Shown: positions 36,736 to 46,903, counted from the stretch's first letter. The stretch: DNA of 64,000 bases from Bacteroidota bacterium (GCA_041191145.1 JBEEPK010000003.1:9651-73650); one strand, 5' to 3'. Numbers and translations: made by a program. Notes: generated from the letters alone by a model not told the origin.

Positions 36736-37446
36736 ATGAATATTGCTTGTATTATCCCTGCTGCCGGCAAAGGATCACGTTTTGGAAATGATATTCCAAA
36801 GCAATTCCTTAGGATTAATGATATCATGATCATCGAATATGCCATTCGCTCATTGATAGATGGATTAATCACATGTGGAGATCATGTCTTATCGCTTATC
36901 ATTGCTTGTGATCCGGAAAGAGTGATTGAATTACAAAATATTTGCAAGCAATATCTTCCATTGTCATCCATTGAATTTGTGGAAGGTGGTATAGAGAGAA
37001 AAGATTCAATCAGAAATGCAATGCATACAGCCTCAGCTATGAAATCCGATAAAGTTATTATTCATGATGCAGCCAGGCCATTCATTCCCAAAGCGGTAAT
37101 ACGAGAGTTAATGAAAGCAAGCGCAGATCATGTTTGTGTCATTCCTGCATTGGATGTTTCTGATACATTGAAAAAAGTGTCTGATGATATAGTTGAGAAA
37201 ACATGTGATCGTAAGCAATTCATGTTGGCTCAGACACCCCAGATTGTTGACACAAAAGTTTATGCTACAACAATACAATCGATTGGCGATGCTATATTTA
37301 CTGATGATGCATCAATTATGGAAAATGCTGGTTATAATGTTCTTTGTATAAAAGGACATGAAATGATGCGAAAAATAACATATCCATATGATTTGATTCT
37401 TTCCGAACTTCATGCATTTATGTATGAACATGAAAATGGAGTTTGA
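36736..37446 (+). CDS. ispD: 2-C-methyl-D-erythritol 4-phosphate cytidylyltransferase
   Basis: IPAAGKGSRFG..IPKQF, GG.ER..S, IHDAARP, DTLK, AQTPQ, TDDAS, KIT.P.DL. Confidence 0.93.
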   Translation: MNIACIIPAAGKGSRFGNDIPKQFLRINDIMIIEYAIRSLIDGLITCGDHVLSLIIACDPERVIELQNICKQYLPLSSIEFVEGGIERKDSIRNAMHTASAMKSDKVIIHDAARPFIPKAVIRELMKASADHVCVIPALDVSDTLKKVSDDIVEKTCDRKQFMLAQTPQIVDTKVYATTIQSIGDAIFTDDASIMENAGYNVLCIKGHEMMRKITYPYDLILSELHAFMYEHENGV

Positions 37447-38353
37447 CTTGAATATAGCAATCATAGGTGGTAATAGTAAGATTGCATCCGCAATCATAGA
37501 CTTGCTTATCAAAGAAACAACATGGAAATTACATGTATATTCCATGACTCTAAATCAAGTTTCCACAGAAAGAATTCAGTATAAAGCAATACCATATCCA
37601 GAGCTAAAGTCTTGGAAAGAAGAGTTTCTTTCCGTAAGACCTGATTATATAATCAATACTGCTGCAATGACCAATGTTGATGCATGCGAAGAAAAAAAAC
37701 AGGAAGCATGGGCTGCTAATGCAGTATTTGCCGAGCAATTATCTAGAATTGCATTGATAATTGAAGCTCATCTCATCCATTTTTCAACAGATTATGTATT
37801 TGATGGCCTTAAAGGCCCATACTCGGAACATGATCAACCTAGACCAATTTCTTATTATGGCAAATCCAAATTGGCAGGTGAAAATGCCGTTTTGAAATCA
37901 CATGCAAAGAATACGGTGATACGAACAAATGTTGTCTATGGTTTGACAAATGATAATCAACAGGATTTTGTCAAGTGGGTTTTACATACCGCAGACGCAG
38001 GCAAACAAATGAATATAGTCGATGATCAATATTCAAATCCAACATTGACCGATGATTTAGCTTTGGCTGTGAAGAGAATCATTGAAAAAAAGAGATGTGG
38101 GATTTATCATATTGGTGGAAATACACAATGTAATCGACTAGAATTTGCATTGGAGATAGCAAAGATTTTTCATTTGGATCAATCCTTGTTTATACCAACA
38201 AAGACAAAAGACCTACATCAACCGGCACAAAGACCACTGATAAGTGGATTGATCAATTTGAAAGCACATACAGATCTGGGAATATCATTCAGTACAATCA
38301 CTGAAGGCCTGGTCAGACTAAGACATCAGATGCATGTACAAAAACAAGAGTAA
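37436..38353 (+). CDS. rfbD: dTDP-4-dehydrorhamnose reductase-like extended SDR
   Basis: INTAAMTNVD.CE, STDYVFDG, YGKSKL.GE, V.DQ...PT; start uncertain (37424, 37430 or 37436). Confidence 0.82.
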   Translation: MEFDLNIAIIGGNSKIASAIIDLLIKETTWKLHVYSMTLNQVSTERIQYKAIPYPELKSWKEEFLSVRPDYIINTAAMTNVDACEEKKQEAWAANAVFAEQLSRIALIIEAHLIHFSTDYVFDGLKGPYSEHDQPRPISYYGKSKLAGENAVLKSHAKNTVIRTNVVYGLTNDNQQDFVKWVLHTADAGKQMNIVDDQYSNPTLTDDLALAVKRIIEKKRCGIYHIGGNTQCNRLEFALEIAKIFHLDQSLFIPTKTKDLHQPAQRPLISGLINLKAHTDLGISFSTITEGLVRLRHQMHVQKQE

Positions 38354-38356
38354 TAT

Positions 38357-39205
38357 ATGAAAATCATGATTTGTGGTTCCGGTACAATGGGAAGGGGTAT
38401 TGCCCTTGTTTCCATTTTGTCCGGACATTCAGCCATACTGTTTGATAAAAATCAAGAAGCCCTCAATCAAGCGAAATCTTTCATTGATGCACAATTGAAG
38501 AAATCACTTGATAAAGGAAGCATAAATAATGAACAATATGATAATTATTCCAAGCAGTGTGTATGTACTGGTGAATTAAGCGAACAAGTGTCACATGCTG
38601 ATATTATCATTGAAGCAATCATTGAATCAATTGAAATCAAAGAAGCACTTTTTGCATCTATCGAAGAATCTGGCTTAAGAGAAGAAGCAATATTGGCAAC
38701 AAATACATCTTCATTGTCAGTGAACATTCTTTCGAAAAACAGAAAGTATCCTTCTCATTTTATTGGTTTGCACTTTTTCAATCCTGCGCATATCATGAAA
38801 TTGGTTGAGATCATCAGAACTCCCATTACGAAAGATGAAGTATTAAATACTGCATTGGAGTTTTGTCGCTCGATTAAAAAAGTACCGGTTATAGCAAAGG
38901 ACGTACCCGGATTTATCGTAAATCGCGTTGCCCGAAATTACTACAATGAAGCAATGCGTATTGCCACCGAAAATGCTTCCAATCCAAAACAAATAGATAC
39001 TCTGATGAAATCACTCGGTTTCAAAATGGGACCATTTGAATTGATGGATCTTATCGGGAATGATGTCAATTTAGAAGTTACAAAATCTGTCGCCGCTCAA
39101 TATTTCAATGAACCAAGATTTACTCCATCACTCATGCAACAAGATATCGTGAATGCGGGTAGATATGGCAGAAAATCCGGTGCCGGATTTTATGAATATG
39201 AATAA
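38357..39205 (+). CDS. 3-hydroxyacyl-CoA dehydrogenase, resembling the PaaH N-terminal half
   Basis: GSGTMG, IEAI.E, NTSSL, HFFNPAH.MKLVE, PGFIVNRVAR.YY.EA.R, MGPFEL.DLIG. Confidence 0.88.
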   Translation: MKIMICGSGTMGRGIALVSILSGHSAILFDKNQEALNQAKSFIDAQLKKSLDKGSINNEQYDNYSKQCVCTGELSEQVSHADIIIEAIIESIEIKEALFASIEESGLREEAILATNTSSLSVNILSKNRKYPSHFIGLHFFNPAHIMKLVEIIRTPITKDEVLNTALEFCRSIKKVPVIAKDVPGFIVNRVARNYYNEAMRIATENASNPKQIDTLMKSLGFKMGPFELMDLIGNDVNLEVTKSVAAQYFNEPRFTPSLMQQDIVNAGRYGRKSGAGFYEYE

Positions 39206-39229
39206 TCAATATTTATTTAAGGATAAGTT

Positions 39230-40084
39230 ATGAATATCGTAGTAATCGGAGCAGGAACAATGGGCAATGGAATTGCTCATGTATGCGCTCAACATGGTCA
39301 TTCAGTCTCACTTGTTGATATAAGTGAAGCATCTCTTTCAAAAGGCATTGCAACTATTACCGGAAATCTTGATCGCCAGGTGAAGAAAGAGATTATTTCA
39401 AATGATGATAAGCAAGCTATTCTCGGAAGAATTATTGCATCAACTGATTTGACACAATCAGCTACCAATGCAGACCTCATCATTGAAGCGGCAACTGAAC
39501 AAAAGAATGTCAAGATTGCATTGTTTCAACAAGCACAATCAACTGCAAAGCCCGAATGTATTTTTGCTTCGAATACTTCTTCGATTTCCATAACTGAATT
39601 GGGTGCAGCGACCAATCGTCCAGATAAATTCATCGGAATGCACTTTTTCAATCCTGTACCAGTCATGAAATTATGCGAGATCGTAAGAGGTTTTGCAACT
39701 TCCGATGAAACATATCAAATCATCTTTGATCTTGCTAAGCAATTGAGTAAAGTACCTGTAACCGTACAAGATTATCCCGGCTTCATATCAAATCGCATCT
39801 TGATGCCAATGATCAATGAAGCGGTGTATTGTTTGATGGAAGGCATTGCAAGTGCTGAAGATATTGATACAGTCATGAAATTGGGAATGGCGCATCCTAT
39901 GGGACCACTTACATTGGCTGATTTTATCGGTCTTGATGTATGTCTTTCAATCATGGAAGTATTACATGATGGCTTGGGTGATAGTAAGTATCGTGCATGT
40001 CCTCTATTGCGCAAGATGGTTGCTGCCGGTCATCTCGGACGCAAATCCGGTAAAGGTTTCTATGATTATTCACAAGGTTCATGA
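39230..40084 (+). CDS. hbd: 3-hydroxybutyryl-CoA dehydrogenase
   Basis: [59 protein letters not shown]. Confidence 0.93.
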
Positions 40085-40518
40085 AAGCCATTGTTCAAAG
40101 AGTTCATTCATCATCGGTAAGCATCGATGATACTATTCATGCCTCGATTCATCGGGGCATGAATGTTCTTATTGGATATTGTCAAGGTGATGACACTAGC
40201 AAAAATGAATGGCTCATTGATAAATTGTTAGGACTCCGCATTTTTCCTGATGAACATGGTAAGATGAATCTATCTTTAATGGATATATCCGGCGAATTGC
40301 TCATCATACCAAATTTCACATTATGTGCTCAAAATGACAGAGGTTTGAGACCGAGTTTTGTTCATGCTGAAGATCCTGCAAATGCAAAAGTTCTCTTTGA
40401 ACATTTCAATTCAAGCTTGAACGATCGATATCCTTTTGCCAAATCAGGAGTATTTGGTGCAGATATGAAAGTTCATATAGAGAATGATGGTCCGGTAACC
40501 TTGATATTAGAAAGATGA
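40081..40518 (+). CDS. dtd: D-aminoacyl-tRNA deacylase
   Basis: MKA.VQRV, LRIFPD..GKMN.S, NFTL, RPSF, G.FGADM.V...NDGPVT. Confidence 0.93.
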
Positions 40519-40521
40519 TAT

Positions 40522-41532
40522 ATGAACATACTGTACAATCATGATCTCACACAGTTCACGGGTTTCAAGACTCCTGTGAATGTTAAAAAGTATGTACTCA
40601 TTGAACATGAGAATGATTTTGATGTACTTTCTTCAGTACAATTAGTAAATCCTTTGATCATAGGTGGTGGAACGAATTACTTATTTGTCAATCCTGAAGT
40701 TGATGAAGCCATTAGTTATATAGGTACAAGCATCACACTGCTTGAAGATTCAGACAAATCCTCCACAGTTAGAGTTGAAGCCGGTAAGAATTGGCATGAA
40801 TTTGTCATGGAAATGCTCGATAATGGATTATATGGACTTGAAAATCTTGTACTTATACCGGGAAATGTTGGAGCAGCTCCTGTACAAAATATTGGTGCTT
40901 ATGGAAGGGAAGTAGCAGAAGCAATTATTGCCGTACATTGTTTTGATTTAGATTCCGGAAAGAGAATCACGCTTACAAATGAAGAGTGTAAGTTTCAATA
41001 CAGACATAGTATCTTTAAAAATCTGGAATTGAAACAATGTTTGATTACTCATGTAGATTTCCGCTTACACAAGATTGAATCTCCAATGGCAAAGTATCCG
41101 GATGTTGAGGAGTATCTACGTGAACATGAAATTGGATCTCCGAATTCAAAGGATATTGCAAATGCAATAATTCAGATTAGAAATAAAAAGCTTCCAAATC
41201 CAAAAATCATCGGAAATGCGGGCAGTTTTTTTAAAAATCCAATCATACCGAATTCTACATACATAAAGTTAAAGCAAAAGTACTTTGATTTGCCCTCATA
41301 TCAAATAAATGAACATGAAGTTAAACTTCCTGCTGGTTGGTTGATTGATAAAGCGGGTTGGAAAGGTTTTAGATGTAATGGAGCAGGCGTACATGATAGA
41401 CAGGCACTTGTTCTTATCAATGCAGACAATGCATTTGGACATGACGTTTATGAATTATCAACAAAGATTCAGAATTCAGTCAAAGAATTATATGGTATTG
41501 ATCTTGAACCTGAAGTGAATATCATAAGATGA
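40522..41532 (+). CDS. murB: UDP-N-acetylenolpyruvoylglucosamine reductase
   Basis: GGGTN, GLENL..IPG.VGAAPVQNIGAYG, F.YR.S.FK, GNAGSFFKNP, LEPEV. Confidence 0.95.
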   Translation: MNILYNHDLTQFTGFKTPVNVKKYVLIEHENDFDVLSSVQLVNPLIIGGGTNYLFVNPEVDEAISYIGTSITLLEDSDKSSTVRVEAGKNWHEFVMEMLDNGLYGLENLVLIPGNVGAAPVQNIGAYGREVAEAIIAVHCFDLDSGKRITLTNEECKFQYRHSIFKNLELKQCLITHVDFRLHKIESPMAKYPDVEEYLREHEIGSPNSKDIANAIIQIRNKKLPNPKIIGNAGSFFKNPIIPNSTYIKLKQKYFDLPSYQINEHEVKLPAGWLIDKAGWKGFRCNGAGVHDRQALVLINADNAFGHDVYELSTKIQNSVKELYGIDLEPEVNIIR

Positions 41533-41539
41533 GTTTACT

Positions 41540-42724
41540 ATGAAAGTCATGAAATTTGGAGGTTCAGTTCTTCATCATGAAGCCGGTTTTCAGGCGATGG
41601 TAGATATTGTAAAAAGACAAGATGACAAACATGTGATTGTTATTTCTGCTTTTTCCGATATCACAAGAAAATTACATTCTATGATGAATTCCGCACTTCA
41701 TCAATCATATGATACATCAATGATCGAATTACATTCAATTATTCAGTATCATCAAATGCTCTCAGATGTATTGTTGCCTAATAAGTCAATATTTCTGAAG
41801 CTACTCGAAAAAACATCAATGCTACTTCAAAGACTTGTGAAGGGAATTTCTTTAACAAAAGAAATTAGTCCTCGCATTAGTGATATGATTCTTGCTCAAG
41901 GCGAAATACTAGCAACTTGTTTTGTCAAAGAATTATTATCATCACATGAAGTTAATATTGGAATGATTGATTCCGGTGATATAATCATTACCAATGAACT
42001 ACATGGATCTGCCAAACCGATAGAGGCATTGGTTTCGCATCATGTTCATACAACACTTGTACCTGCTTTTGATCACCATGATTTTATAATCATAGCAGGT
42101 TTCTACGGTAAGAATTCACATGGAGATCTTACAACCATGGGGTATGAAAGTTCAAATCTGACCGCTGCATTATTGGGTAGTACATTAAAGGCGGATGAAA
42201 TTACGATTTGGACAGATGTCTGTGGAATTCGATCATCAGATCCGAAGCATATTGTCAATACAATCGCCATCCCAAGATTATCATATTTGCAAGCCCAAGA
42301 ATTGGCAGATAATGGTTTGAAATTACTTCATCATTGGATGTTAGATCTTCCACTAAAACATTCCATTCCTGTATCAATAGCAAATGCTTTTGATGATGAG
42401 GGAGAACAAACTAGAATCTCCAATGAGTATGATGAAGTAGTTCCAACAATCATCATCAGACATTCACAGGACATGAAAAATTTTGCTCATTTATATTCGG
42501 ATGATGATAATTCAATAGTACATATTTCAATTTTTACCCAAAATGATGATATCATTCAAAAGATATATGCATTGGCATCAGAATTATCATTGAATGAAAG
42601 AATTATCGTAAACACATTTGCAACAAGAAATATGCATCATATAATCTTGCATGATCATATTGCTCAATATTTCATGAACGCTTTACATACATTGATCGAG
42701 AACGAAAATGAAACATCATCATGA
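41540..42724 (+). CDS. Aspartate kinase-like protein with a degenerate active-site motif
   Basis: MKFGGSV, ISA, GE, AGF.G...G..TT.G, WTDV.G..S.DP, SY..A.ELA..G.K.LH; the canonical GRGGSD reads GYESSN. Confidence 0.78.
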   Translation: MKVMKFGGSVLHHEAGFQAMVDIVKRQDDKHVIVISAFSDITRKLHSMMNSALHQSYDTSMIELHSIIQYHQMLSDVLLPNKSIFLKLLEKTSMLLQRLVKGISLTKEISPRISDMILAQGEILATCFVKELLSSHEVNIGMIDSGDIIITNELHGSAKPIEALVSHHVHTTLVPAFDHHDFIIIAGFYGKNSHGDLTTMGYESSNLTAALLGSTLKADEITIWTDVCGIRSSDPKHIVNTIAIPRLSYLQAQELADNGLKLLHHWMLDLPLKHSIPVSIANAFDDEGEQTRISNEYDEVVPTIIIRHSQDMKNFAHLYSDDDNSIVHISIFTQNDDIIQKIYALASELSLNERIIVNTFATRNMHHIILHDHIAQYFMNALHTLIENENETSS

Positions 42725-42947
42725 ATCCCCGGATAGATCCACTATGCCTGTACAAGGCAATTCTTACATAGTTTCTAGAGAAGGGAAAGAATTATTCTCA
42801 GCTTTTATTACTGAGTACAAACCGGCATCATGTTGGGCAAATATAGAAGTCATAGATGCAAAGCCTGGATATGAGGAATATTATCCTCAACAAGCATCCA
42901 TGAAATTAAAGGTCGCTCTTTATGATTTTACAATAAGTGAAAAGTAA
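42708..42947 (+). CDS. Small hypothetical protein
   Basis: Fills the gap between the kinase and the convergent tmk; start may be 42744. Confidence 0.5.
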   Translation: MKHHHESPDRSTMPVQGNSYIVSREGKELFSAFITEYKPASCWANIEVIDAKPGYEEYYPQQASMKLKVALYDFTISEK

Positions 42948-42954
42948 TTACATA

Positions 42955-43575
42955 TCACAAATAGCTGTTTACAATTGATTCTACTTGTTGGCGGATATCA
43001 TTCATGGCGTCATTTGCATTGATGATAAATATGTTCCTATCCGACTTCTTCGCAATTTCGAGATATCCTTCTTTTGTTCTTTCGAAAAATGCATCACCCG
43101 ATCTTTCCATTCTATCAGGTTTAGTTTGATTATCATTTGATCTAAATCCTGCTCTTTTTGCCGCATCATCAACTGATAAATCAAAAATAAAAGTGATATC
43201 AGGTATAAGTCCCGCTGTTGCAAAATCATTTATGGATTCAATGGACTCAATGGATAGTCCTCTGCCATATCCCTGATATGCTACAGATGAATCAATATAT
43301 CTATCACAGATCACAATTTTTCCTGCTTCCAATGCAGGTCTGATGACACTACTCACTAATTGAGCTCTTGCCGCAGTGAAGAGAAGTAATTCGCATCGCG
43401 GATCTACTTGTTCTCTAGAATCCAACAATAATTGTCTGATCTGTTCAGAAAGAATATTTCCACCGGGTTCACGAAGCGTTGTCACGACATGATTTCGTCT
43501 TTCAAGCATTTCCTTCAATAATTGAATCTGCGTTGATTTACCACTGCCATCAATTCCTTCAAATGTGATGAACAT
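42955..43575 (-). CDS. tmk: Thymidylate kinase
   Basis: FITFEGIDGSGKSTQ, REPGG, LLF.A.RAQ, DRY.DSS.AYQG.GRG. Confidence 0.96.
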   Translation of the reverse strand: MFITFEGIDGSGKSTQIQLLKEMLERRNHVVTTLREPGGNILSEQIRQLLLDSREQVDPRCELLLFTAARAQLVSSVIRPALEAGKIVICDRYIDSSVAYQGYGRGLSIESIESINDFATAGLIPDITFIFDLSVDDAAKRAGFRSNDNQTKPDRMERSGDAFFERTKEGYLEIAKKSDRNIFIINANDAMNDIRQQVESIVNSYL

Positions 43576-44279
43576 TATATGCTCTCCTTATCTATCACAA
43601 TCACAAATTCACCTTTTGCATTCTGTTCTGTCAACAATTGCAGTATCTCAGTAGGATTTCCTCTGAACGATTGTTCAAATTTCTTGGTCAATTCTCTCAC
43701 CACATAAAATTGTCTTGCATTTAATGATTGTGATGATTCAAATGAATTGAACAAATCCAATATCCGATATGGACTCTCGTAAAGAATTACGACATTCTTT
43801 CTATCATGTAAAGAATTGATAAAGGAATCTCTTCCTTTCTTATGAGGGGGAAAACCAAGAAAACACCAATCATCAGTTGAAAAACCACTTTGCACAAGTG
43901 CCGGTATTAATGCTGTTGCACCCGGCAAGACATGATAAGGAACTTCCATTGTGATAGCCGTTTGAATGAGAATCATACCTGGATCTGAAATACCGGGAGT
44001 TCCTGCATCTGAGACATAACAAACTCTCTTACCTTTTTTGACTTCATTACAAAGAAATTCACTTATGGATTTTTCATTATGCTCGCGACAAGAATGAAGT
44101 TTTCGTGGGATAATGGAGTATTGCTTTAATAATTGTCCCGTTACTCTAGTGTCTTCACAAGCAATGATTTCAGATACTGATAATAATCTCAATGCACGAA
44201 GGGTCATGTCCTCCAAGTTTCCAATAGGAGTTGGTATGAAATATAATGCGGGATCATATTGTCTTTCTTCATGTTTCAC
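43575..44279 (-). CDS. rsmI: 16S rRNA (cytidine1402-2'-O)-methyltransferase
   Basis: LYFIPTPIGNLED.T.RA, ACEDTR, SDAGTPGISDPG, YESPYR, RELTK.FE, KGEFV. Confidence 0.96.
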   Translation of the reverse strand: MKHEERQYDPALYFIPTPIGNLEDMTLRALRLLSVSEIIACEDTRVTGQLLKQYSIIPRKLHSCREHNEKSISEFLCNEVKKGKRVCYVSDAGTPGISDPGMILIQTAITMEVPYHVLPGATALIPALVQSGFSTDDWCFLGFPPHKKGRDSFINSLHDRKNVVILYESPYRILDLFNSFESSQSLNARQFYVVRELTKKFEQSFRGNPTEILQLLTEQNAKGEFVIVIDKESI

Positions 44280-44775
44280 TATTGTTTCCTAATTCTTTTG
44301 TCTTCATTATCCTTCCTTTTCTCAAATCGCTAAAAAAAGTAGACAATAGTTCCGAAGATTCTTTAGCCATGATTCCTTGATGAACTTCACATTGATGATT
44401 CAATCGTTTATCATTCAGTAGTTCATATAATGAATGAACAGCGCCTGCTTTTGGATCATTTGAGGCAAAATAGATAACTGGAATCCGCGAGAGAATAATA
44501 GCTCCTGCACACATAGCACATGGTTCCAGTGTAACATATAAAGTACAGTCTAACAATCTTCTTGTATTCAGTTTTTTAGATGCTGATTCAATCACCAATA
44601 ATTCAGCATGTCCTATCGGATTTTGAAGATGTTCTGTTTGATTATATGAACATGCTATGACTTCATCATTCTTCACTATAACTGCACCAATTGGAACTTC
44701 ACCTAGCGAATATGCAATCTTTGCTTGATCTATAGCAAGATTCATGAATTCTAAATGCCTAGATTCTTGAGTCAT
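44269..44775 (-). CDS. tadA: tRNA adenosine(34) deaminase
   Basis: GEVPIGAVIV, HAE, LYVTLEPC.MC.GA, DPK.GA, LNH. Confidence 0.93.
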   Translation of the reverse strand: MTQESRHLEFMNLAIDQAKIAYSLGEVPIGAVIVKNDEVIACSYNQTEHLQNPIGHAELLVIESASKKLNTRRLLDCTLYVTLEPCAMCAGAIILSRIPVIYFASNDPKAGAVHSLYELLNDKRLNHQCEVHQGIMAKESSELLSTFFSDLRKGRIMKTKELGNNSET

Positions 44776-45569
44776 TAGAAACGGATTCCAAATTTATCAG
44801 GATATATCACTTTTTCCAAAACTAGTCCTTGTGGTTCAGCAACAGGAGCTCTCTTTATCTGTGAATACCTCTGAGGTACATTCAATAAATGCATGATTTC
44901 TTCTCTTTTCATTGAACCTCGAGCATATTCCAACATTGCTCCAACCAATGAACGAACCATGGCATATACGAATCTATTGGCGCCTATATGCAAGATGTAA
45001 TCTCCTGTATCTGTGCATTTCCATTCACATAATGCAACATTACATACATAAGAAATAGTAGAAGGATTATGCTTTGAAAAAGAAGTGAAATCATGTTCGC
45101 CTATAAACATATCTCCGGAACTAAGCAGTTTTTTCTCATCCAATGGATATGGATAATAGGTAGAGAAATATCTATTGAAAACATGCTCAATGCTAGTAAT
45201 TGTATAGGAATATTCTCGATACTCAGCATCTCGAGTACAATGGAAATCACAAAGTGGTATGCAATGGCCAATTATGCGAATATCTTTTGGCAGTCTACTA
45301 TTTATTGCACGAATGATCTTATCATCCGGAACAGAGAAAATCTCATTGGTTGATTTGAAATGTGCTATCTGACCGCGAGCATGAACTCCGGCATCAGTTC
45401 TACCGGAACCCAGCACATGAATCTCATGGCCTGTTAATTTCTTGAGTGCATCTTCAATTGCCTGTTGCACACTGTTACCATTGTTTTGTCTTTGCCATCC
45501 CGAATAATTCGTTCCATCATATTCGACTTTCAAGACATGAATGATGCGATTGGACATGATGCAATTCAC
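44775..45569 (-). CDS. truA: tRNA pseudouridine(38-40) synthase
   Basis: EYDG..YSGWQ.Q, GRTDAGVHA.GQ, HDF.SF, F...MVR..VG, A...GL.L..V.Y. Confidence 0.96.
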   Translation of the reverse strand: MNCIMSNRIIHVLKVEYDGTNYSGWQRQNNGNSVQQAIEDALKKLTGHEIHVLGSGRTDAGVHARGQIAHFKSTNEIFSVPDDKIIRAINSRLPKDIRIIGHCIPLCDFHCTRDAEYREYSYTITSIEHVFNRYFSTYYPYPLDEKKLLSSGDMFIGEHDFTSFSKHNPSTISYVCNVALCEWKCTDTGDYILHIGANRFVYAMVRSLVGAMLEYARGSMKREEIMHLLNVPQRYSQIKRAPVAEPQGLVLEKVIYPDKFGIRF

Positions 45570-46903
45570 ATGACAGAAAGAGGGAAATATCTTTGATTGA
45601 CTGTAGGGATGTCAAGCAAAGAACTATTAACTAGGCCATTCTTATCATCTATAGAAAGCAATTTTATGCGATAAGGTTGAAGGTCAATATGCTGATCGGC
45701 TGAGAACTGACATCGAATATAATTATCAGTCCATCCTTTCCAAAGGCCAGTTTCCGGATCATAAGATTCGGGTATGACGATATACTCTTTGCCGATCTCT
45801 GAAGCATAAAACTCCAGTCTTTTGTGTTCAGAGAGAGTTCTCAATCTAGCATTACGTAATTTTCGAATTCTCATTGGAACTGCATCAGGATAATCAGCGG
45901 CTGGAGTATTATCTCTTTCCGAATAAGTGAAAACATGTAAATATGAAAAGGGAAGTGATTCAATAAATGTAAATGTTTCCTCAAATTCAGCATCTGTTTC
46001 ACCAGGAAAACCAACGATGACATCAGCACCTATACAAGCATGGGGAAGCAATTGTTTGTAGGCAAGCAAAGTATCTCGATATGCAGATGCTTTATATCTT
46101 CTTTTCATTCTTCTCAATACCGATGGCGATCCACTTTGAAGAGGTATATGAAGATGCGGTACGATCTTCTTTGAACTTGTGATGAGTTGAATAATATGAT
46201 CTGATACAAGATTTGGTTCTATGGAGCCGATTCTAAAGCGAGATTTGGTTTCTAAAGCTTCTATCATTTTCAAAACATCGTAAAATGTATGTTCATCATG
46301 ATGATAATCACCGAGATTGATTCCGGAGAGAATGATTTCATGATAACCTTGTTCTTCCAATCGTTTGATTCTATCTGGAATATCTTTCAAGTCAATGCTT
46401 CTGCTTTTTCCTCTTGCCATTGGAATTGTGCAAAAGCTGCAACTATAATCACAGCCATCCTGTATTTTCAAAAATGCTCTGGTTCTAGCATCCTCATCTG
46501 CTGACTGTGAAAAAGCAAACTCAGCATTATCAATTGATTGAACAAATAGCTCTGGAGTCTCCCTTTTTGAATAATCTGTGATCAATTGATCTATTTTTAA
46601 TTTATCAGCTGTTCCAATGACTGCATCAACTCCGGGTATTGTCGATATTTCTTCGGATTTCAATTGTGCATAGCAACCTGTAACTCCAATGAATGCATTC
46701 GGAGATTTTTGCTGTATTTTGCGAATGATTTTACGGCATTCCGTATCGGCATTCTCTGTCACCGTACAAGTATTTATAATCACTGCATCGGTAAGATCGC
46801 CGAAAGGAACGATTTCATGACCCAATTTTTCATATTGATCTCTTAGTTGAGAAGTTTCTGAATAATTGAGTTTACAACCTAATGTATGAAATGATATTTT
46901 CAT
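45566..46903 (-). CDS. mtaB: tRNA threonylcarbamoyladenosine methylthiotransferase
   Basis: TLGCKLN.SE, INTCTVT, GCYAQ, KIQDGC.Y.CSFC.IP, HIPLQSG, DVIVGFPGET. Confidence 0.92.
   Translation of the reverse strand: MKISFHTLGCKLNYSETSQLRDQYEKLGHEIVPFGDLTDAVIINTCTVTENADTECRKIIRKIQQKSPNAFIGVTGCYAQLKSEEISTIPGVDAVIGTADKLKIDQLITDYSKRETPELFVQSIDNAEFAFSQSADEDARTRAFLKIQDGCDYSCSFCTIPMARGKSRSIDLKDIPDRIKRLEEQGYHEIILSGINLGDYHHDEHTFYDVLKMIEALETKSRFRIGSIEPNLVSDHIIQLITSSKKIVPHLHIPLQSGSPSVLRRMKRRYKASAYRDTLLAYKQLLPHACIGADVIVGFPGETDAEFEETFTFIESLPFSYLHVFTYSERDNTPAADYPDAVPMRIRKLRNARLRTLSEHKRLEFYASEIGKEYIVIPESYDPETGLWKGWTDNYIRCQFSADQHIDLQPYRIKLLSIDDKNGLVNSSLLDIPTVNQRYFPLSVM

Follow-up and report, generated by a model that had tools for sequence, protein, structure and literature searches.

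A diverged aspartokinase paralogue with Asn in place of the catalytic Asp in a Kapabacteria-type order of Bacteroidota

The window, i.e. the whole 64,000-nucleotide stretch of Bacteroidota DNA analysed in this study, contains a gene for a 394-aa protein that we read, with a probability of roughly one half (0.5), as a neofunctionalised paralogue of the AKIII-type aspartokinases. On the evidence of its sequence, the product would still be a kinase that binds ATP and an aspartate-like amine, and it would be distinct from the housekeeping enzyme. The alignments indicate that the family to which it belongs, hereafter type N, is defined by the replacement of Gly-Gly by Glu-Ser and of the catalytic Asp by Asn, with Arg43, Leu207, Arg231 and Met267 as later additions, and not by a change of Arg to Tyr. 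Two of the four aspartokinase residues that mutagenesis has defined as essential are lost in this paralogue. The catalytic Asp is gone, yet the two lysines remain, as do the phosphate loop and the residues of the nucleotide site, and next to the site an invariant Glu has newly appeared; this retained core, together with the coordinated gains, looks like an active site that has been rebuilt, not abandoned. The coordinates of the gene, its main features and the adjoining ORF are compiled in Table 1.

Table 1. Features of the type-N gene and of the overlapping small ORF (nucleotide positions of the window; residue numbers of the 394-aa protein).
Feature	Position	Strand	Basis or remarks
Gene of the diverged aspartokinase paralogue (type N, G-x-E-S-S-N family)	41540..42724	+	ORF, 394 aa
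K5-F-G-G, N-terminal phosphate-binding loop with the catalytic Lys (AKIII K8)	41552..41563	+	Alignment
S36-A37...T42-R43, including the counterparts of AKIII ligand contacts A40 and T45 and the family-specific Arg43	41645..41668	+	
E122, equivalent to AKIII E119, binder of the alpha-amino group	41903..41905	+	45/45 in the family, 19/19 in canonical enzymes
TTMGYESSN, rewritten TTLGRGGSD	42131..42157	+	Residues 198-206; HMMER alignments; column and motif counts; pattern match at G000:C3:51781 = window 42131
T225-D-V-C-G-I-R-S-S-D-P-K236, nucleotide-site segment	42212..42247	+	D234-P235 invariant, R231 family-specific
K261, conserved Lys of G-x-K-(V/L)-L-H	42320..42322	+	44/45 in the family, 17/19 in canonical enzymes
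Single ACT-like C-terminal domain, residues ~300-390	42437..42709	+	AF2 secondary structure; alignment gap
Tail ENETSS (six residues) and stop codon	42704..42724	+	Read-through extension overlapping the start of the next ORF
Conserved small protein of 79 aa, SH3-like five-strand barrel	42708..42947	+	Overlaps the kinase stop codon; separate gene family

Assignment of the gene to the aspartokinase fold

The 394-aa protein matched a single Pfam model, PF00696 (AA_kinase; E 3e-29, 102.8 bits against a cut-off of 24.9, profile positions 3-234), and its AF2 model (pLDDT 93.2, pTM 0.90) showed the open alpha/beta sandwich fold of the amino acid kinase superfamily. Among relatives of solved structure, the aspartokinases of M. 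jannaschii (E 1e-34) and E. coli (AKIII, E 1.5e-27) ranked best in the HMMER alignments. Aspartokinase structures also came first when the AF2 model was submitted to Foldseek (2hmf, 3c1m and 2j0w at the top, E 1e-28 to 1e-29, TMq 0.81), and were followed in the list by isopentenyl phosphate kinases with 11-15% identity. Taken together, profile and model place the ORF in the amino-acid-kinase/aspartokinase fold, in agreement with the preliminary description, in which the protein had been called aspartokinase-like and a structure model had been proposed as a check.

Source annotations call the G-x-E-S-S-N genes 'aspartate kinase'. The NCBIfam models nearest to the protein are indeed those of aspartokinases, and every one of their curated cut-offs was missed: TIGR00657, the curated aspartate kinase model (EC 2.7.2.4), gave 198.6 bits, under its cut-off of 208.7, and the best equivalog, NF006570 (AKIII type), gave 190.5 bits against 455. 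Our literature searches returned no paper on the G-x-E-S-S-N family, and a scan for sigma-70 promoters stayed at chance level (36 sites vs. 31.4 ± 5.5).

Family size and selection

About 50 relatives of 374-435 aa were obtained in a protein search, and alignments showed that G-x-E-S-S-N-L-T-A is conserved down to about 25-30% identity. A profile search was then run over 1.84 billion representatives, from which the best 150 clusters (50% identity) were taken, 144 of them newly retrieved. The motif pattern was present in 137 of these 144 clusters, 136 of which had N, S, T or A directly after G-x-ESS, the residue x across the 144 clusters being mostly I, F, K, M, L, Y or R, with I, F, K and M as the commonest. 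More than 150 clusters at 50% identity carry the family signature.

Close orthologues of the window kinase exhibited dN/dS values of 0.11-0.23, which denote purifying selection, and none of the 45 aligned members, nor any of the extracted orthologues, had a broken reading frame. The G-x-E-S-S-N gene is an intact, selected member of a large family. A private mutation in a decaying gene had been named beforehand as a finding that would overturn the proposal, and this was excluded. Indeed, a decaying pseudogene or a strain-private lysC mutation, in favour of which only the divergent motif itself can be adduced, is extremely improbable in view of the intact frames, of a signature shared by so many clusters at ~25% identity, of the selection detected and of a model with pLDDT 93.

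Active-site residues changed and kept

In the HMMER alignments, Y202, E203, S204, S205 and N206 of the window protein are equivalent to R198, G199, G200, S201 and D202 of AKIII. The pairing of TTMGYESSN with TTLGRGGSD that had been made from the sequence is exact, with Arg replaced by Tyr and Asp by Asn. Conservation was counted by columns in a 64-row alignment comprising 45 family members and 19 canonical aspartokinases. Glu203 and Ser204 were found in all 45 family members, and Gly occupies both positions in the canonical enzymes. At position 206 the family has Asn (43/45) or Thr (2/45), compared with Asp in 19/19 canonical sequences, so that the catalytic Asp (AKIII D202, NAGK D162) is missing throughout. 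At position 202, Tyr (28), Lys (6), Thr (4), Phe (4), Arg (2) and Leu (1) were recorded where the 19 canonical enzymes all have the alpha-carboxylate Arg (AKIII R198), which is retained by basal members of the family. In type N this position is free to vary and mostly hydrophobic.

These counts modify the emphasis that the preliminary description had laid on the substrate motif: the Asp change was confirmed by its presence as Asn in 43/45 members, whereas the Arg change did not stand as a defining trait, since Y, K, R, F, T, I, M or L can be found at position 202 and basal members have Arg. Conservation of GYESSN among orthologues, which had been put forward as a check, was found for Glu203, Ser204 and Ser205 (45/45 each) and for Asn, but not for the variable Tyr. 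Similarly, TDVDG does read TDVCG, but the significance attached to this was not upheld. The variable residue of TDV-x-G is D (13), S (5) or N (1) in the canonical enzymes, and E (13), D (8), S (7), C (5), A (4) and N (4) were counted in the family; the position varies in both, and TDVCG was ruled out as a signal.

Regarding the retained residues, the N-terminal Lys, Ser, Thr and Glu previously listed as kept are K5, S36, T42 and E122, equivalent to AKIII K8, S39, T45 and E119. The catalytic Lys of KFGG is present in 44/45 family members, as are G7, G8 and A37; S36, F188, S205, D234 and P235 are present in 45/45, and T42 in 42/45. Residues D115, G121, T198-T199 and G259 are no less conserved in the family than in true aspartokinases. 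In AKIII, aspartate is contacted by A40, T45, E119, F184 and S201 (PMC5481828), and all five contacts, which lie towards the amino and beta-carboxyl end of aspartate, have their counterparts in the window protein (A37, T42, E122, F188 and S205). E119 of AKIII binds the alpha-amino group of aspartate (PMC5481828; PMC4142519), and by site-directed mutagenesis D202 was shown to be important for activity and the alpha-carboxylate to be bound by R198; the roles of K8/D202 and E119/R198 are given in the same study (PMC4142519). In MjAK, D239 and R241 bind the nucleotide (PMC4142519), and in NAGK the Asp equivalent to D202 positions the two catalytic lysines (PMC2851564).

The family-specific gains comprise M200, E203, S204, N206, L207 and M267, often together with R43 and R231. 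Each of the two arginines was found in 34/45 members, the canonical enzymes having D, N or S at position 43 and L, Y or M at position 231. Some members (L025, L036) have no Arg or Lys at any of positions 43, 202 and 231. The hydroxyl residue that follows KFGG is often lost in the family, with Ala in 16 members and Ile in five at position 9.

C-terminal domain and tail

In the AF2 model, residues 304-390 form one beta-alpha-beta-beta-alpha unit plus one extra strand (strands 304-308, 326-332, 356-358 and 365-371; helices 336-349 and 372-390). There is thus no ACT pair, and alignment with the canonical proteins showed a gap of ~85 columns in the window protein, whose 394 aa compare with 438-476 aa in canonical relatives. 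The short C-terminal region without a clear ACT pair had been correctly recognised from the sequence. An internal deletion of ~85 alignment columns has left one ACT-like unit from the ACT1/ACT2 pair, whereas both units are probably retained in other, longer proteins of the family (430-454 aa). The Pfam ACT models miss even the canonical aspartokinase of the same genome, so that a missing Pfam ACT match is no evidence of absence.

Residues 391-394 have pLDDT values below 50. The orthologues L005 and L006 end at a TAA codon, and the same site is GAA in the window. A 'HETSS' tail recurs on several of the related kinases and was also considered as a functional motif. This was rejected, as the tail merely reproduces in the +1 frame the conserved beginning (MKHHHE) of the small ORF, exposed by the loss of the TAA.

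Order of the changes in the tree

A maximum-likelihood tree of 94 rows was obtained by an IQ-TREE quick search under LG+G4, with SH-aLRT support only, and the window protein, whose own row had dropped out as a duplicate, was represented in it by the orthologues L005 and L006 (86-87% identity). All 'ES' proteins grouped in one clade (SH-aLRT 96) within the AKIII-like aspartokinases of the class. Within this clade the RESSD forms branched at the base, and the forms with Asp replaced by Asn were nested as a group of their own (SH-aLRT 96), the first branch of which, f7, still reads RESSN. The series of column states starts with the canonical LGRGGSDY and leads through MGRESSDY to MGRESSNY in f7, accompanied there by N43, L231 and T267. 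Next in the series is the order-level family, with R43, L207, R231 and M267 and with Lys or Arg at position 202, and last are derived clades with Y, F, I, M, L or T at this position, the window protein included. According to the tree, GG would have changed to ES and then D to N, followed by the acquisition of R43, R231, L207 and M267, and the alpha-carboxylate Arg would have been lost last.

The RESSD aspartokinases (L047, L048 and L051, in genomes G011, G004 and G001, respectively) read TTMGRESSD and are of full length (453-474 aa). In G004 and G001 the RESSD form is the sole aspartokinase-like gene, asd is present in both genomes, and the two proteins, L048 and L051, pass TIGR00657 with 283.7 and 335.6 bits; we therefore infer that the change of GG to ES alone is compatible with aspartokinase function. 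The basal RESSN form barely passes the same model (215.7 bits) and the other order-level type-N proteins fail it (189.9-196.2 bits). The replacement of D by N coincides with the point from which the protein is never a genome's sole aspartokinase. As a separate observation, TTMGRESSD is an undescribed variant of a motif regarded as invariant, and the aspartokinases bearing it are apparently functional.

Distribution and co-resident aspartokinase

All the named relatives come from MAGs labelled Kapaibacterium, Kapabacteria, Ignavibacteria or Bacteroidota. Two MAG contigs labelled Hyphomicrobiales (L022 and L023) carry a Kapabacteria-type gene with 30-35% identity to the window protein, and are probably mis-binned. 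When the pattern TTMG-x-ESS-[N/T/K] was searched at the codon level in 401 genomes of the class, 59 of them gave a match, compared with two matches in the 401 genomes for the reversed-pattern control. The window's order accounts for 52 positive genomes out of 58 (f1, 8/8; f2, 18/22; f3, 18/19; f4, 7/8; f29, 1/1), and outside this order the pattern was found only in f7 (5/21), apart from one doubtful match. Among the genomes sampled, type N is almost confined to one order (Kapabacteria-type MAGs).

The canonical pattern T-x-[LIMV]-GRGGSD was also detected in 33 of the 35 type-N genomes searched for both motifs, and the remaining two lacked only the exact canonical pattern; in no genome checked for co-occurrence was type N the sole aspartokinase-like gene. 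The search for a canonical lysC elsewhere in the genome, advised in the preliminary description, was positive: a canonical 447-aa aspartokinase (TTLGRGGSDYSAA), scoring 279.9 bits with TIGR00657, is located on contig C67. The same genome has two further amino-acid kinases and carries asd. This last gene is divided between two contig ends (G000, C21:3-872 and C125:2-202), which represents an assembly break and not a broken gene.

Genomic neighbourhood and the 79-aa ORF

The kinase gene is the sixth of seven close-packed genes on the + strand (rmlD, two 3-hydroxyacyl-CoA dehydrogenase genes, dtd, murB, the kinase gene and a 79-aa ORF), a block that converges on tmk, rsmI, tadA, truA and mtaB. 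It lies directly downstream of dtd and murB, and no aspartate-pathway gene was found among its ten flanking genes (37412-46903), just as had been stated beforehand. Throughout the window's family, at kinase identities as low as 37%, the block is conserved in full. The tandem dehydrogenase genes (38357-40084, + strand) are likewise conserved as a pair across the synteny block of the family; the product of the first is PaaH-like, below the cut-offs of that model, and that of the second passes the 3-hydroxybutyryl-CoA dehydrogenase model.

Gene contexts differ among families. With K standing for the kinase gene, the arrangement rmlD-hbd-hbd-dtd-murB-K-small ORF is found in f1, and K-small ORF adjoins smc and rpsR in f3. 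A ccmB-like gene and an APC-type amino-acid permease gene precede K on the same strand in f4 (L094-L096), K-pyrD-relA/spoT (L097, L022) or nfeD-cheB-K is found in f2, and PRTase-truA-K or K-DUF3109-rpoN in other members. No shared pathway emerged from the contexts compared across families, and none of them has an adjacent aspartate-pathway gene; the f4 permease and the f2 pyrD-relA/spoT contexts point weakly to a connection with amino-acid supply.

The 79-aa ORF is a real gene. Its 30 distinct orthologues in f1 and f3 start between -20 and +27 nt from the kinase stop, dN/dS values are 0.05-0.32, and H5, Y20, C42-W43-A44, Y59 and K68-V69-A70-x-Y72 are invariant in the protein family. The AF2 model (pLDDT 83.8) is a five-strand SH3-like barrel, for which structure matches (best Z 6.7) revealed only a generic Sm/Tudor/KOW resemblance, and no match was found in Pfam, in a PDB sequence search or in the ESM Atlas. 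The 79-aa family is present in at least seven families of the order (f1, f3, f4, f26, f27, f29 and f36), and the gene is single-copy in f26 (10/10), f36 (4/4) and f27 (2/2). The type-N motif was found in none of the genomes searched from f26 (0/3) and f27 (0/1), f36 being outside that sample, and the 79-aa gene was not found in f2 (0/10), a family carrying type N. Furthermore, the small gene is unlinked to the kinase gene in f4 and adjoins it only in f1 and f3. An obligate partnership with the kinase was rejected because of this uncoupled distribution. The idea of a detached ACT domain was also discarded, since no aspartokinase C-terminus resembled the profile of the small protein (best E 0.98), and the protein folds as an SH3-like barrel.

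Interpretation of the type-N paralogue

The neofunctionalised paralogue would descend from a duplication that took place in the ancestor of a single Bacteroidota order (Kapabacteria-type MAGs), in which it would then have been kept in single copy. It would no longer supply aspartyl phosphate for Lys/Thr/Met synthesis, would still bind ATP and an aspartate-like amino compound without a free alpha-carboxylate, and would most likely still transfer phosphate. This kind of substrate is predicted because the anchor site of the alpha-carboxylate is hydrophobic and the anchor of the alpha-amino group is untouched. A retained and retargeted kinase is favoured because both lysines and the nucleotide site are kept and the invariant Glu arose before the Asp was lost. 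Glu203 precedes Asn206 by one turn of the helix, at its N-cap, and may take over from the lost Asp the positioning of the two lysines, a compensation suggested by this helix geometry (i, i+3). Against phosphoryl transfer, mutation of the replaced Asp disrupts function in characterised enzymes and, by analogy, catalysis may have been lost. In addition, some members (L025, L036) are devoid of Arg and Lys at positions 43, 202 and 231, and no single scheme of substrate anchoring fits all of the family. It is a tentative and rather doubtful extension of the kinase reading that type N constitutes a new enzyme class, with a rebuilt centre in which a helix-cap Glu stands for Asp and with an aspartate-like amine without free alpha-carboxylate as the acceptor; examples of such acceptors would be beta-amino acids, or aspartate that is alpha-substituted or linked in a peptide.

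A kinase for another substrate or a pseudo-enzyme had been the two options offered at the outset. The pair does bracket the two leading readings. The pseudo-enzyme, a possibility to be taken seriously although we lean away from it, would be a non-catalytic or very slow ligand-binding paralogue acting as a sensor or regulatory subunit, e.g. of the canonical aspartokinase or of another partner, with the pocket for ATP and amino acid kept and with the single ACT-like domain as the element through which pairing could take place. Loss in every member of an Asp needed in AKIII and NAGK fits this explanation, and so do the frequent loss of hydroxyl residues after KFGG, the almost constant co-residence of a canonical aspartokinase, and the appearance of Asn before the relaxation of Arg, which is the order expected once aspartate turnover is no longer selected; a precedent exists in the classical N-acetylglutamate synthases. 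However, K5, K261, E203, S204, S205, N206 and the ligand contacts are near-invariant at ~25% identity, beyond what is usual for a scaffold, and R43, R231, L207 and M267 were gained in a coordinated way that resembles rebuilding and not decay. Moreover, no conserved partner gene was found, and the adjoining small ORF does not co-vary with the family.

An unlikely alternative to the retargeted kinase is a second aspartokinase isozyme with altered regulation through one ACT-like domain, in which Glu203 and Asn206 would substitute for the Asp and Arg43/Arg231 for the alpha-carboxylate Arg. It would explain why the five aspartate contacts of AKIII, the alpha-amino Glu included, are all kept and why Arg43 and Arg231 arise before Arg202 is lost, and it agrees with the ability of a protein with ES in place of GG to be the sole aspartokinase of a genome. 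Bacteria commonly have multiple, differently regulated aspartokinase isozymes. However, the two positions altered are those that site-directed mutagenesis identified as important for activity (D202) and as the alpha-carboxylate binder (R198) (PMC4142519), and several members are without a basic residue at 43, 202 or 231. The consistent presence of another aspartokinase-like gene wherever co-occurrence was checked (canonical pattern in 33/35 genomes, two without the exact pattern only) and the TIGR00657 scores under the curated cut-off also argue against an isozyme.

The relevance of type N lies in the Asp that it has replaced. This residue is regarded as essential throughout the amino-acid-kinase fold and, to our knowledge, is conserved in every characterised active member, and type N is a large, strongly selected, order-wide family without it. 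If it is a kinase, the fold can catalyse phosphoryl transfer on a new substrate by means of a differently built centre, and if the new enzyme class were real, an unknown acyl-phosphate-dependent pathway would be core to Kapabacteria. If it is non-catalytic, it may be a clear-cut case from nature in which an aspartokinase has become a ligand sensor. Metabolic reconstructions based on Kapabacteria and Ignavibacteria MAGs can be led astray by the annotation 'aspartate kinase', and the series RGGSD, RESSD, RESSN and K/Y/F/I-ESSN supplies natural intermediates ready for mutational study.

Comparison with known systems

Isopentenyl phosphate kinase, FomA and LysZ belong with the window protein to the PF00696 superfamily and illustrate how the fold has been retargeted via changes in the N-lobe pocket. 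Unlike type N, they keep the conserved Asp; they have no ACT domains and are distant from the window protein (11-15% identity). In classical N-acetylglutamate synthases, an inactive amino-acid-kinase domain has been kept for regulation or oligomerisation, but this kinase-dead domain has no specific sequence relation to the window protein and is found in another domain architecture, so that the likeness is one of analogy only.

The aspartokinases AKIII (E. coli LysC, 2J0W/2J0X) and MjAK (2HMF, 3C1M) have the same fold as the window protein. With AKIII it shares the counterparts of K8, S39, A40, T45, E119, F184 and S201, the DP motif and the lysine of GxK(V/L)LH. It differs from AKIII in having Asn for D202, Tyr for R198 and Glu-Ser for G199-G200, and in the new residues Arg43, Arg231, Leu207 and Met267. 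Furthermore, it has one ACT-like unit, compared with two in AKIII and MjAK, and its gene is unlinked to those of the aspartate pathway. The RESSD-type aspartokinases of the class (L047, L048 and L051) fall into the same clade as the window protein (96 SH-aLRT) and have M200, E203 and S204 in common with it. In contrast to the window protein, these enzymes have kept the Arg and the catalytic Asp, are 453-474 aa long and pass TIGR00657 (L048 and L051); they are presumably working aspartokinases.
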